A stretch of 64,000 bases of DNA from Gemmatimonadales bacterium (GTDB taxonomy: Bacteria; Gemmatimonadota; Gemmatimonadetes; Gemmatimonadales; GWC2-71-9). This document shows positions 52,173-60,812 of this stretch, in pieces (positions within the stretch are counted from its first letter, which is position 1; each line of letters starts with the position of its first letter). The position numbers were made by a program, and so were the translations under genes. The stretch lies in assembly GCA_041615815.1 (NCBI GenBank), contig JBFJCP010000008.1, positions 1-64,000 on the forward strand. The letters are read 5' to 3'. The notes below the pieces were generated by a model that was not told the DNA's origin, ran no database searches, and saw nothing but the letters and a program-made list of their open reading frames with translations.

Positions 52173-53618
52173 ATGAAGCTCAATGACGTCCGCGTCGAGC
52201 AAATCGATGAGTTCCGGTGGCGTGTACCGCAACACGGCGGCATGCGTACCTACGGCCTCATCTTCGCCGATGCCGCATTGATGCAAGACCTCGCGGGCGA
52301 TCAGTGCGTCCAACAAGTCATCAACGTTGCCCACCTTCCAGGCATCGTCGGGCCCTCGATCGCGATGCCGGATATCCATTGGGGATATGGTTTTCCCATT
52401 GGTGGCGTGGCCGCATTTGACGAGAAAGAAGGAGTCATTTCGCCCGGCGGTGTGGGATACGACATCAACTGTGGGGTGCGCCTGCTGCGTTCTCCCCTCT
52501 CCATGCACGATGTTCGTCCCCACCTCCGCAAGCTGGTGGACGAGCTGTACGAGGGAATTCCCTCCGGCGTGGGGTCATCTCGCGCGGACGTCCGGCTCAC
52601 CGATTCCGAGCTCGGCCACGTGCTCAGGCGGGGAGCGCGGTGGGCCGTGGAAGAAGGATTCGGCGTGCCGCGTGACCTCGAGTGTATGGAAGGCGGCGGC
52701 GCGTTGGACGGCAACCCGGACACCGTGAGCGCCCGAGCGAAGAAACGCGGCAAGAACCAGCTCGGCACGGTGGGTAGTGGTAACCACTTCGTGGAGGTCG
52801 GTTACGTCTCCGCCATCTATGACGATGTCGCCGCCACCCGGCTCGGCCTGTCCCTCAACACCGTCACGTTCTTCATTCACTCCGGCTCCCGCGGTCTCGG
52901 ATACCAGGTCTGCGACGACTACCTCGATCTCATGGTGCAAGCCTCACGCAAGTACGGTATCGAGCTCCCGGACAAACAACTCTGTTGCGCACCGCTCACG
53001 AGTCCCGAAGCCCGCGACTATCTCGGGGCCATGAATGCGGCAGCGAATTACGCCTTCGCCAACCGCCAACTCATGAGTCACTATGTCCGCCGGGCAGTCA
53101 CCGACGTGTTTTCCGGCGACGCCGCGGACCAGGTGGACCTCGTGTATGATGTGGCTCACAACATCGCCAAGTTCGAGACACACGAGGTGGCAGGACAGGG
53201 CCGCCGCCTCTGCGTGCACCGCAAGGGGGCCACCCGTGCCTTCCCACCTCGGCACCCGGAACTCGCCGCCCGATTCCAAGACATTGGACAGCCGGTGTTC
53301 ATCCCCGGCGACATGGGCCGGTACTCCTATGTGCTGGTTGGCACTCCCGGTGCCTACGACGAGACGTTTGGTTCGACGTGTCACGGCGCTGGGAGACGCA
53401 TGAGCCGTACACAAGCCAAGAAGGAGGCCCGTCCCCGCAACGTGCCGAAAGAACTCGCGGCCCGCGGAATCCTGATCCGAGCCGCCAGTCGACGCACGGT
53501 GGACGAAGAGATCCCCGAGGCCTACAAAGATGTTCGGCAGGTAGTGGACGTCGTGGACGGAGCGGGAATTGGTAAGAAGGTGGCGCAACTCAAACCGATG
53601 GGAGTGGTGAAAGGGTAG
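52173..53618 (+). CDS. rtcB: RtcB RNA ligase (archease-dependent, archaeal/eukaryotic-like)
   Basis: MPDIHWGYGFPIGGV, GVGYDINCG, GTVGSGNHF, HSGSRG, YDVAHNIAK, HRKGATRAF, STCHGAGR, E.PEAYKDV, VVKG. Confidence 0.97.
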   Translation: MKLNDVRVEQIDEFRWRVPQHGGMRTYGLIFADAALMQDLAGDQCVQQVINVAHLPGIVGPSIAMPDIHWGYGFPIGGVAAFDEKEGVISPGGVGYDINCGVRLLRSPLSMHDVRPHLRKLVDELYEGIPSGVGSSRADVRLTDSELGHVLRRGARWAVEEGFGVPRDLECMEGGGALDGNPDTVSARAKKRGKNQLGTVGSGNHFVEVGYVSAIYDDVAATRLGLSLNTVTFFIHSGSRGLGYQVCDDYLDLMVQASRKYGIELPDKQLCCAPLTSPEARDYLGAMNAAANYAFANRQLMSHYVRRAVTDVFSGDAADQVDLVYDVAHNIAKFETHEVAGQGRRLCVHRKGATRAFPPRHPELAARFQDIGQPVFIPGDMGRYSYVLVGTPGAYDETFGSTCHGAGRRMSRTQAKKEARPRNVPKELAARGILIRAASRRTVDEEIPEAYKDVRQVVDVVDGAGIGKKVAQLKPMGVVKG

Positions 53619-53699
53619 AAGCTGGGAAAGCGAGGAGGCTGGACGGAACTGGCGGCATCACCTTCACACCGTCCGTCCTACGATCGAGTACCATAAATG

Positions 53700-54120
53700 C
53701 ACAGACGGCCGGGCATCCAAACGGATCCCGGCCGTCTATCGCACTGGTTACCCGGAGCCAGGGGATTAACTCCCTCTGTTCTTCTTCCCGGTGCCGCCGC
53801 GGCTGTTTGCACCTTGCGGATAAGCATTCCGGGAGCTCCGGCTTCCATCCACCTGCGGCCTGGCCTGGCCGCGGGCTTCGCCAGTGCGGGCGCTGCGAGT
53901 CGGATCGGGTCGCGGACCGACCTCTCGCACTGCACACCGAGGCGCCGCGTCGGTGCGGGCGAGGCGCGCGACTGGCCTCGCCGACCCAAGCCAAGGTGAC
54001 CACCTGGATCATCGAACGCCTGAGCTCTTGAGTTCTCGGCGTTCTCCCCAGAATTCCCGCTTGGGTCCGCCACGCTGGGCGTGGCCAAGACTCGAAAGTC
54101 CCGACCCGTCCCCGTGTGGC
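53700..54120 (-). ncRNA. Candidate large structured non-coding RNA of unrecognised family
   Basis: Own promoter, continuous stem-loops with UUCG and GCAA tetraloops and G-U pairs on the minus strand, terminal hairpin, no credible ORF. Confidence 0.55.
53703..53737. terminator. Strong hairpin, probable (bidirectional) terminator
   Basis: AGACGGCCGGG / CCCGGCCGTCT 11-bp stem, extended by ATCC/GGAT. Confidence 0.65.
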
Positions 54121-54126
54121 GAGATC

Positions 54127-54154
54127 AATATAGGGGGTCCCTAAAACCGCGCAA
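54127..54154 (-). promoter_or_regulatory. sigma70-like promoter
   Basis: TTGCGC (54154-54149)-N16-TATATT (54132-54127) on the minus strand. Confidence 0.65.
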
Positions 54155-54197
54155 GCGCCGATATTTCTTCGGCTTACGAGCTTTCGTGTGGGCCTGC

Positions 54198-54291
54198 TGT
54201 GGAAACGTAATATCCGACGAAACGGCTACTTGCCCGACTTATCCACGCGGTGTGGACGTGTGCAAAACCGGATTCCCCACACTCATCCACA
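54198..54291. promoter_or_regulatory. DnaA-box cluster
   Basis: Matches to TTWTNCACA: 54259-67 (minus, TTTTGCACA, perfect); 54239-47, 54283-91 and 54198-206 (1 mismatch each); 54273-81 (2 mismatches). Confidence 0.65.
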
Positions 54292-54293
54292 TC

Positions 54294-54914
54294 TCATTCC
54301 CGAGTCCCCACTTCCTCGTATACGTAGGCATCGCCGGTCACGGAGGGGGCGAACAACAGACCGCCACCACTAGTTGCGAACCAACCGCCCAGGAGGACGT
54401 GGGACACCTCGGGCGCCGGTGGCTGAAAAAGTGCCGCGAGCCAGCGCCGCACGTGCATGAGTTCCGGGGCGCGCCGCGACAACAGTGAGAGGACACTCCC
54501 AACGCCTTGCGTCGCACGGAGAAAATGTGCGATCGCGTGGACGCGCTGCGCGAACTCATAGGCCCTCACGCCGGGTTCGTCGTAGAGCAGCGTACCCTCG
54601 TACGGGTCCGCGGGCGGTGCGTCCACCCGGGGACCGAGATAGACGTAGACCCGACGTCCCTGGCTGCGCCGTTCCACGACCGCGGCCGCCGTCTCGCCGG
54701 ACAGACGAGCGGCGTGCAGCTGGTCCGTGTCGTTCAAAATCCCCACGGTCACGGTCCATTCGAGCGCCGCCAGAGCGTTGTACAGCGGACACCCCAATTC
54801 CTCGTCGTAGGCGATGAGTCGAGGGGCCTCGCCTGCACGTTGGAAGAAATGGCCCCAAGCGTCGGCACGATCGGGGGCCGTGTGGGTGGATCGGGAGATA
54901 GCGGGTACCGTCAT
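54294..54914 (-). CDS. Hypothetical protein
   Basis: 206-aa ORF with GAGG RBS and globular composition; no motif recognised. Confidence 0.75.
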   Translation of the reverse strand: MTVPAISRSTHTAPDRADAWGHFFQRAGEAPRLIAYDEELGCPLYNALAALEWTVTVGILNDTDQLHAARLSGETAAAVVERRSQGRRVYVYLGPRVDAPPADPYEGTLLYDEPGVRAYEFAQRVHAIAHFLRATQGVGSVLSLLSRRAPELMHVRRWLAALFQPPAPEVSHVLLGGWFATSGGGLLFAPSVTGDAYVYEEVGTRE

Positions 54915-55719: not shown

Positions 55720-56637
55720 TCAGATCACGACGACCGGTGTCACGACCTCGCGCTCGCGCGCGAAGACCCGTTCAGCAGCATCGAGCGCCTCCTGGACCTC
55801 GGGGGTTTCCGCATCGGGGTATTTGACGCTGGGCTCGATCTGCCCGCTGAGACGCCGTACCATTACCAACGCCCGCGTGACCTCGCAACGCGCTGGGTCG
55901 GGATCCGTGAATCCCGAGGTCAACAGGTCGCGGAAGAAGGGGAGCGTCCTGACATCCTCCAGCACGTAGAGCGATTCCAGAATCCTCGGACTCAGGAACG
56001 CGCGCAGGTGCAGATCGCGGCGAACCTCGTCGAACAAGGCAACCAGATACAGGGCCGCGTCCTGCTCGGGATAAAAGCGAGCTGCCTCGGCCGCCGCGCC
56101 GACGAACGCGTGGTGGGCGTCCGGCGTGAGATACCGAACAAAGAGAGGCCACTCTCGCCGACGATGCCGCTCCGCCAGCGCCAAGAACGCAAAATATCGG
56201 CGGGGAATCGGCGCCGCCCCATCGGCCACGACGGTTCGGAGTCCGGCGGGACCGAACCGCTGGGCGACCAACGCCGCCGCGGTGGCGTGCTGGAGTCGTT
56301 CGAGCTCGGGCAGCCGAAAGGTTCGGACTCGGAGGGCCGCGGACTCCCCACCCGTGGCCAAGGGGGGCAGCTGCCGTAGGAGACCGAGCAGAAGGGAGTC
56401 CACTTCCTCCAATGCGAACTCCCACACGCGAACATCCCGACGTCGGGGCGCGGCGAGCGCCTCCCAGCCCAAGCGTGTGACGTCCAGGTCGTCCCACCGG
56501 GTCTCGAGCACGGAGGGGGTTTGCGCCTCGGAAAGTCGACGCAACGCCTCGGCAAATCGGAAGAGGGCGTCAGGCACCGAAGGCAATGTAGATCGCGGGC
56601 GAATGGGTGGCGAGCCTCCGGTGCATATTGCATTCAC
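55720..56637 (-). CDS. Hypothetical helical (HEAT-like) protein
   Basis: Helix-rich ORF (RRYFAFLALAE, AAAEAARFYP, ILESLYVL). Start may be downstream of 56637. Confidence 0.7.
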   Translation of the reverse strand: MNAICTGGSPPIRPRSTLPSVPDALFRFAEALRRLSEAQTPSVLETRWDDLDVTRLGWEALAAPRRRDVRVWEFALEEVDSLLLGLLRQLPPLATGGESAALRVRTFRLPELERLQHATAAALVAQRFGPAGLRTVVADGAAPIPRRYFAFLALAERHRRREWPLFVRYLTPDAHHAFVGAAAEAARFYPEQDAALYLVALFDEVRRDLHLRAFLSPRILESLYVLEDVRTLPFFRDLLTSGFTDPDPARCEVTRALVMVRRLSGQIEPSVKYPDAETPEVQEALDAAERVFAREREVVTPVVVI

Positions 56638-60554: not shown

Positions 60555-60812
60555 GTGGGACGTCGAGGAATCAAGGAATACCGCGCAGCCGAAGCCCTGC
60601 AGCTCATTCTGGCGGATCGTGATCGCGAGGATCTGAACTGCCCGTCCTGCGGACATGCCAGCATCCAGCGGGTCCCCAAACGACGCCTGCCGAAGTCGCG
60701 GCGAGAAGCCCACCGCCGGGTGACGCTCCGCTGCTCGAAGTGCGGCCGACAGGCCGTCTACGTGCCTCGCAACGTCACCCAGCCATCGGACAAGGAACTC
60801 CTGGCCCAGTAG
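60555..60812 (+). CDS. Small zinc-ribbon protein
   Basis: CPSCG...RVTLRCSKCGRQAVY; GGGAG RBS. Confidence 0.65.
   Translation: MGRRGIKEYRAAEALQLILADRDREDLNCPSCGHASIQRVPKRRLPKSRREAHRRVTLRCSKCGRQAVYVPRNVTQPSDKELLAQ

Follow-up and report, generated by a model that had tools for sequence, protein, structure and literature searches.

A conserved pseudoknotted RNA of Gemmatimonadales, very probably of an uncatalogued class, with DnaA-box-like sequences upstream

Results

The locus and its RNA gene

The window, that is, the whole analysed stretch of 64,000 nucleotides from a Gemmatimonadales bacterium, contains an intergenic stretch (54120–53700, minus strand) that lies between the gene of an orphan protein and the convergent rtcB gene (Table 1). 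This stretch is almost certainly a real, stand-alone non-coding RNA gene. On the minus strand, TTGCGC (54154–54149) and TATATT (54132–54127) are separated by 16 nt, exactly as described in a first-pass annotation, which took them for the RNA's own promoter. The two hexamers are conserved among the homologues, although a simple promoter scanner makes no call here. The same annotation regarded the reading frames as noise, and no reading frame is conserved among 50 homologues: at most 10 of the 50 are free of stop codons in any anchored frame, and their lengths modulo 3 split 17/15/18.

The only Rfam matches in the whole window are two tRNAs. Over the region of the RNA, the best matches to Rfam 15, including its riboswitches, ribozymes and OLE, ROOL and GOLLD RNAs, had E values of 0.86 and 5, far below the gathering thresholds, and no credible family was found for 13 variant loci either. 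The annotation's suggestion of a possibly undescribed large RNA is therefore backed by conservation, covariation, the lack of an Rfam match and the presence of the RNA in RNA libraries. Membership failed for every family tested, and the RNA very probably constitutes an uncatalogued class, albeit one that can be counted among the loosely defined large orphan RNAs of bacteria.

Table 1. Coordinates of the RNA gene, its parts and its neighbours in the window
Feature	Position	Strand	Basis or remark
ncRNA gene	53700..54120	-	~425 nt including terminator; start estimated from the -10 box
Variable 5' stems, including the UUCG-capped hairpin of this genome	54068..54120	-	Weakly conserved; missing in core-only variants
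5' arm with K-turn-type internal loop	53983..54067	-	Helices 2-5 covary
Universal core, ~95 nt, three hairpins and two pseudoknots	53889..53982	-	Covariation; sole part in 7 short variants
3' domain	53740..53888	-	Helices 12-19; missing or remodelled in short variants
Intrinsic-terminator-type hairpin and tail	53695..53737	-	Stem 53737-53703 covaries; hairpin and T-rich tail in 94 of 99 loci
Sigma-70-type promoter	54127..54154	-	Sequence and conservation in homologues; no call by consensus scanner
Promoter-proximal 26-nt element running into the -35 hexamer	54151..54176	-	Pattern conserved
Row of TCCACA/TGTGGA boxes (DnaA-box-like array)	54186..54300	-	Position-conserved in 30 aligned promoters
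Orphan 206-aa protein gene	54294..54914	-	Most constant neighbour; candidate partner
rtcB	52173..53618	+	Pfam PF01139; converges on the RNA gene in this genome; given for context, outside the system

Architecture of the RNA

Most of the pairing proposed earlier is present as described, namely the UUCG-capped stem, the nested arm GACCCAAGC/GCTTGGGTC (54067–53983), the helices GGCGAGGC/GCCTCGCC, GCACCGA/TCGGTGT and GCGGCC/GGCCGC, and the hairpin GGGA-GTTAA-TCCC. The terminal stem is also present, and we read it as an intrinsic terminator, with a weak T-run in this genome. Neither the UUCG nor the GCAA loop turned out to be conserved in the homologues. The CAGTGCG/CGCACTG helix had to be revised: the partner of CGCACTG is the far 3' CAGTGCG, and 9 of 9 pairs of this helix (helix 12) covary.

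The internal loop of the 5' arm consists of G54046-A54045 and G54010-A54009 plus the 3-nt bulge 54013–54011. Judged by what we take to be the K-turn consensus, the signature (tandem G-A/A-G pairs, 3-nt bulge and flanking canonical helix) is found in 42 of 50 sequences, with a G-U pair next to it in 43 of 50. The core folds into the hairpins 53982–53958, 53957–53933 and 53929–53894. Its loop–loop pseudoknot 1 (6 bp) joins 53972–53967 to 53914–53909, where CGCGAC is the partner of the loop GUCGCG (96% of cells paired), and its loop–tail pseudoknot 2 (5 bp) joins 53946–53942 to 53893–53889. The core also contains invariant unpaired residues. The 3' domain is composed of a closing helix (53888–53880/53748–53740), a hairpin with a self-complementary GGCC loop (43 of 50 copies) and a three-way junction, in which the linkers GAA, GGAU and AGAAGAAC and the unpaired purines are conserved.

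Covariation and strand

The 426-nt minus strand folds with a z-score of -7.4 (0 of 100 shuffles were as stable), which falls to -3.4 once the terminal stem is removed. Since the opposite strand also reaches -4.2, single-sequence folding cannot assign the strand. The assignment to the minus strand is made because of the excess of G-U over A-C cells at the modelled pairs (429 vs 105), the conserved -35 and -10 hexamers upstream and the T-rich tails downstream.

RNAalifold predicted 124 pairs from 29 sequences, 87 of them with compensatory change. In a curated 100-pair model of 50 sequences, 93.7% of the cells are paired and two-sided changes occur at 80 pairs, counts that are inflated by related sequences; none of 500 shuffles reached this model, and slid controls gave at most 43.4%. 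Under our own tree-aware null, from which 4 partial copies were left out, 9 pairs reached E≤0.05, and each was canonical in at least 85%. Seven of them lie in modelled helices or the terminator, and two are non-structural cross-correlations. The alignments A2, A3 and A5 omit at least 3 divergent or partial rows.

No pseudoknot pair reached E≤0.05 under the tree-aware null, and the pseudoknots rest on pair counts: 97.8% of their cells are paired, with two-sided change at 8 of 11 pairs, a level that none of 500 shuffles attained and that compares with 55.9% or less in slid controls. In pseudoknot 1, the first pair shows independent swaps from G-C to A-U, U-G and C-G, and a swap from C-G to U-A is found in pseudoknot 2.

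Distribution and natural variants

The survey covered genomes of the phylum Gemmatimonadota and 80 metagenome loci. By BLAST, the RNA sequence was found in 47 of 61 genomes. A covariance model of 146 positions detected the RNA in 71 of 72 genomes of the window's family (f1) and in both genomes of the sister family f3, and in none of 31 genomes of family f2 or 45 genomes of nine other families (0/76 other genomes of the phylum). The core-only model R2, which recovers the loci L001 and L136 in a separate run, gave no match in filtered searches of 39 f2 genomes and 39 genomes of another order. The syntenic yhaM-like loci of f2 and the phage and plasmid collections likewise contained no match to the RNA, and the records matching the RNA or the orphan protein are titled Gemmatimonadales or Gemmatimonadota. 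The retention of the RNA resembles that of a housekeeping gene.

Each genome with the RNA carries one to three copies. The three in the window's genome are that of the window (contig C8), C46:9267–9699 and C2:201906–202280, the last of which has lost pseudoknot 1; this pseudoknot is also degraded in a few other copies (L136, L140 and L040). Most of 99 loci measure 410–435 nt from estimated start to terminator, and those without the 5' arm or the 3' domain, as judged by the distance to the terminator, 289–398 nt. Seven variants (L139, L140, L142–L144, L146 and L147) consist of promoter, core, short linker and terminator, with a length of 154–181 nt. Given that these seven keep the core alone, the part with three hairpins and two pseudoknots is the indispensable one. 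Judged from the sequences of the variants, the K-turn arm and the GGCC hairpin are dispensable. A contig from a viral collection (L323:2990–3099) ends in a core fragment fused to unrelated sequence, and is probably an assembly chimera with an abundant RNA.

The upstream box array

About 150 bp upstream of the RNA are conserved as well as the RNA itself, with boxes at fixed spacing; in the window, the box cores lie at 54291, 54281, 54263, 54255, 54247, 54202 and 54191. The pattern of the 26-nt element occurs in 108 of 113 f1 genomes, 3 of 3 f3 genomes and 0 of 134 other genomes of the phylum, and the reversed-pattern control found none. The boxes match those of the lineage's oriC and are clustered above background, at 46 per kb in the arrays vs 19 per kb in the dnaA–dnaN gaps of f1 and f3 and 5.2 per kb genome-wide. 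As the TCCACA core was fixed in the search, the box profiles resemble each other partly by construction, and the information lies in the density. An 8-bp tandem box pair is present in 16 of 30 arrays and 9 of 29 dnaA loci, as compared to 8 sites genome-wide, and the exact tandem pattern is absent from the oriC of the window's own genome. The two densest box clusters of that genome both sit at copies of the RNA. The array is missing at 12 of 99 copies, and is retained where the RNA shrinks to its core. We infer from these box sequences that the array would be bound by DnaA.

In 29 genomes of the order, most dnaA–dnaN gaps hold CTA-trio repeats, which we take to mark them as oriC, together with the TCCACA box core. 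The likely oriC of the window's genome is located between dnaA and dnaN (C8:102160–102390) and has degenerate TCCACA boxes and CTA trios. A survey of boxes and trios in the array and the dnaA–dnaN gaps found no CTA trios at the array, implying that the array is not a replication origin. The distance between the RNA and dnaA is 36–67 kb in all 7 genomes with both on one contig.

The same type of box-array cassette as at the RNA precedes small ORFs at three further places (G000:C16:46066–46237, locus L072, in the window's genome; L327:179–294; L328:201–343), and the cassette therefore behaves as a regulated promoter. The ORF behind the C16 cassette encodes 93 aa with two CxxC-like pairs, and those in the two other genomes roughly 75 aa. 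These small protein genes may form a small regulon of one common factor. A partial array without the -35 element (G000:C46:2727–2818) lies upstream of a gene pair that is presumably of a zinc-peptidase-like family. MraZ (PF02381), which we assume from its motif to be a rival binder of such boxes, was not found in 5 of 5 carriers (G000, G019, G009, G033 and G038) by a search that recovered 7 of 14 controls.

A second class of copies (L021, L040, L043, L046–L048, L145, L149, L154 and L156–L158) has no array and different 5' ends, and mostly lacks the GGCC loop. Upstream of several of these copies there are TCAC repeats, and the class may thus be under another regulator. Inspection of the class II promoters for CRP-like sites revealed none that was clear.

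Neighbouring genes and the orphan protein

Neighbours were counted in flanks of 1.5–2.5 kb, with the proteins beside the RNA in the window as queries and after removal of 10 duplicate loci. The orphan 206-aa gene adjoins the RNA in 80 of 87 array-bearing loci; in 68 of them it lies upstream on the same strand, and in 12 downstream and convergent. A gene for a yhaM-like HD-domain protein is found beside the RNA in 39 of the 87 and rtcB in just 7, a rarity that speaks against the link to RNA repair via yhaM, archease and rtcB raised by the first-pass annotation.

At the level of families, the orphan protein and the promoter are equally distributed (108/113 f1, 3/3 f3 and 0/134 others). One genome (G024) lacks RNA, promoter and orphan protein alike, and four others (G020, G239, G264 and G219) have the promoter and no match to the protein. 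A single control, another orphan near the RNA (305 aa; window 55720–56637, minus strand), is present in 24 of 55 f1 genomes. The adjacency of orphan gene and RNA could also be explained by linkage in an origin-proximal block. An 85-aa zinc-ribbon-like ORF with weak Pfam matches lies at 60555–60812 (plus strand) of the window.

The 206-aa protein belongs to no Pfam or NCBIfam family, and the searches found no solved relative, no Atlas match and no distant homologue among 118 matches. It is acidic (median pI 5.7). Its predicted model (pLDDT 84; best fold match Z 5.5) matched no fold clearly and has no recognisable RNA-binding fold. By eye, the model appears to have a two-fold internal repeat of strand–helix–strand units (residues 6–35 and 116–142), for which a BLASTP self-comparison gave no match. 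An L7Ae-family gene was found, and G057, a genome without the RNA, has one as well.

Presence in RNA libraries

This stretch was found in 13 sequencing runs, 12 of them RNA runs. Four RNA runs of one study (metatranscriptomes) hold 25–46% of its words and the other runs (X5–X13) small shares. The contigs of the four, aligned to the window at 85% likeness, pile up on 53772–53988 with a summed depth of 740 to 160,000; at high depth they stay within 53739–54104 of the RNA gene, and bins wholly outside the RNA have depths of 0–14. The runs were picked because they contain this stretch, and their contigs carry neither strand nor ends nor level. Contigs cover the flanking genes sparsely or not at all, a comparison that cannot rank expression. 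Over 144 nt, one contig matches the window exactly, and another has one difference in 159 nt; most stem from relatives. The RNA contigs cross the core without an evident break. The pile-up is consistent with a discrete, abundant RNA. In run X2, one contig of depth 17 leads from 53901 back to 53739 across five intervening letters, possibly from a circle of the 3' part or as a library artefact.

Tests against known RNA families

RNase P RNA, tmRNA and SRP RNA have canonical copies elsewhere in the genome (C8:105464–105828, C1:50779–51136 and C3:132708–132805), so the RNA is none of these, in agreement with the first-pass annotation. It neither matches the 6S model (RF00013) nor has the rod with central bubble at zapA. 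RF00013 found no 6S RNA in 55 f1 genomes, in the one f3 genome searched or in the window's own genome. It found 6S in 9 of 121 genomes, all of families without this RNA and 8 of them beside zapA. The zapA–rny gap of the window's genome (G000:C16:91616–91852 and downstream, locus L322) is ~75 nt long and has no 6S. Outside family f8, none of 102 genomes of the class matched RF00013, nor did the window's own; a large lineage is possibly without detectable 6S.

Membership in the raiA motif family (RF03072) was rejected, with no match in the genome at E≤10 and none in 13 loci that include core-only variants. In one and the same search, RF03072 matched 14 of 15 raiA candidates and 0 of 4 homologues of this RNA. 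Models R1 and R2 of this RNA fail to recognise raiA motifs, and the raiA HMM scored at best 1.3 bits on this family, as compared to 2.9 bits on shuffles. A raiA-like alternative pairing does not covary (78 of 500 shuffles were as high); the CAC that follows the first hairpin has a local partner, and the core-only variants lack the entire 3' region. A raiA-type pattern scan of metagenomes listed at least 120 stretches. Among the 80 loci screened from these listed matches, 7 are this RNA by R1, 14 of 15 candidates are raiA by Rfam and the rest are neither; no intermediate of the two was seen among the matches listed. None of 32 viral-contig matches to the pattern was raiA by Rfam. The C. acetobutylicum raiA sequence was taken from the supplement of PMC10861870. 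The RNA is not a raiA member, and remote descent from raiA is possible.

No description of this RNA was found in the freely available literature searched. The main text of PMC11109978 does not contain "Gemmatimona", and the main texts of bioRxiv 10.64898/2026.10.21.760802 and 10.64898/2026.09.22.753630 mention no Gemmatimonad, raiA, DnaA, yhaM or rtcB; their supplements could list the family.

Discussion

Proposed role and alternatives

We tentatively read the RNA as an abundant, DnaA-controlled, trans-acting RNA that binds protein. Its working part would be the compact ~95-nt knot of three hairpins, locked by the 6-bp and 5-bp pseudoknots, and the 5' K-turn arm and the 3' multi-way junction would be optional add-ons, probably for protein docking. 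DnaA on the upstream boxes would make the output of the RNA follow the replication or growth state. The RNA could then serve as a protein-binding scaffold or regulator, as the raiA and OLE RNAs are thought to do, and, at growth transitions, might adjust a housekeeping process. The most likely protein partner would be the neighbouring orphan protein, and an L7Ae-family protein at the K-turn would be a possible further one. The RNA's own promoter and terminator, its variable flanks and its two orientations fit action in trans. A bolder version, which we consider doubtful, is that this is a new housekeeping-like class wired to DnaA, whose core forms with the orphan protein a ribonucleoprotein (or ribozyme) linking the replication state to physiology, and which is perhaps a strongly diverged sister of the raiA core.

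That the RNA is a remote, remodelled descendant of raiA, still doing what raiA does, is rather unlikely. The common GCCAGUCGC(A/G) loop and the UCCAC and GUGCG motifs favour such descent, as do the abundance, the natural minimal forms and the independent transcripts of both RNAs, but covariance models and HMMs do not cross-match in either direction, P1, P4 and PK2 are missing and the raiA-like pairing lacks covariation. It is quite unlikely that the core is a self-cleaving, processing or ligating ribozyme, whose products the HD nuclease, sometimes with RtcB and archease, would trim or seal. A compact double-pseudoknot build is typical of several small ribozymes, and such a build with invariant unpaired residues, the HD-domain gene convergent at 39 of 87 loci and the back-joint from 53901 to 53739 in one low-depth contig suit this idea. 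Against it, no ribozyme family was matched, the RNA contigs cross the core with no evident break, rtcB is seldom adjacent, and the back-joint, seen in one contig only (depth 17), may be an artefact. A dedicated substrate or guide of RtcB/archease RNA repair is very improbable: the RNA is convergent on archease–rtcB here and at 6 further loci, but the flanks of 80 of 87 array-bearing loci contain no rtcB, the genes lie on the opposite strand, and there is no Y-RNA or tRNA-like domain.

It is also quite unlikely that the RNA replaces 6S by binding RNA polymerase, as Ms1 does in Actinobacteria. The absence of detectable 6S from f1 and f3, the 9 genomes of other families that have it, the short zapA–rny gap and the apparent abundance of the RNA all point this way. 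The RNA is, however, a multi-branched knot instead of a rod, its core-only forms of 154–181 nt lack a promoter-mimic shape, and f2, f6 and f7 have neither a detectable 6S nor this RNA, indicating that the loss of 6S does not require it. Finally, the locus could be mainly a DNA element, a DnaA sink or recharging site of the datA/DARS type that transcription of the RNA, or its local action, would switch. In support, the array is kept as well as the RNA, even where the RNA is core only, the genome's two densest box clusters lie at copies of the RNA, and the locus is origin-proximal. This reading, which we hold to be distinctly improbable, leaves two covarying pseudoknots and 12 array-less copies unexplained, and the cassette also stands ahead of ordinary small ORFs, with no CTA trios at the array.

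Significance

According to PMC10861870, large well-conserved bacterial RNAs without known function are rare, and those that have been solved often proved fundamental. Two families of a little-studied phylum, both made up of environmental bacteria, have the RNA described here almost without exception, and it seems abundant in RNA libraries from soil and sediment. Its distribution is narrow, and our searches point to no genetic system. The natural minimal core of ~95 nt should lend itself readily to synthesis, probing and structure determination. If the RNA is under DnaA control, replication initiation would be tied to a structured RNA; if the RNA is a remote relative of raiA, the few shared nucleotides would point to the functional site of raiA.

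Comparison with known systems

DnaA-regulated promoters and the datA/DARS sites are DnaA-box clusters outside oriC. The array shares with them phased boxes in both orientations, the core of the lineage's oriC and a place near the origin, and differs in that it abuts the -35 hexamer of a large structured RNA gene, an arrangement for which the literature listings searched, as far as these go, gave no precedent. Like 6S and Ms1, the RNA is an abundant single-locus RNA, here in a lineage without detected 6S, whereas 6S and Ms1 form a rod with a central bubble and this RNA has a pseudoknotted core away from the zapA locus. It resembles OLE, ROOL and GOLLD in being large and highly paired and in having kissing loops, and its self-complementary GGCC loop could form intermolecular contacts like those that PMC12286853 describes. 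Unlike these, it is smaller and chromosomal, with no Rfam match and no match in phages or plasmids.

The raiA motif RNA occurs in Bacillota and Actinomycetota, between comFC and raiA, and this RNA in Gemmatimonadales, in the window between the orphan gene and the HD/archease/rtcB genes; this RNA is about twice as long. In both, the hairpin loop GCCAGUCGC(A/G) takes part in a 6-bp pseudoknot, with UCCAC shortly after and GUGCG just past the next hairpin, a likeness biased by the choice of the compared raiA loci by their shared motif. The pseudoknot itself is GUCGCG/CGCGAC here and GUCGCA/UGCGGC in raiA, and its partner differs in context, being a hairpin loop in this RNA and a linker in raiA. 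The closing helix P1 between the 5' and 3' ends, the long-range P4 and PK2 are present in raiA and lacking here, and PMC12968392 reports natural minimal forms of raiA, and P1, P4 and PK2 as essential to raiA. The two RNAs are alike as abundant, stand-alone structured RNAs with two pseudoknots and a conserved core surrounded by optional peripheral stems.
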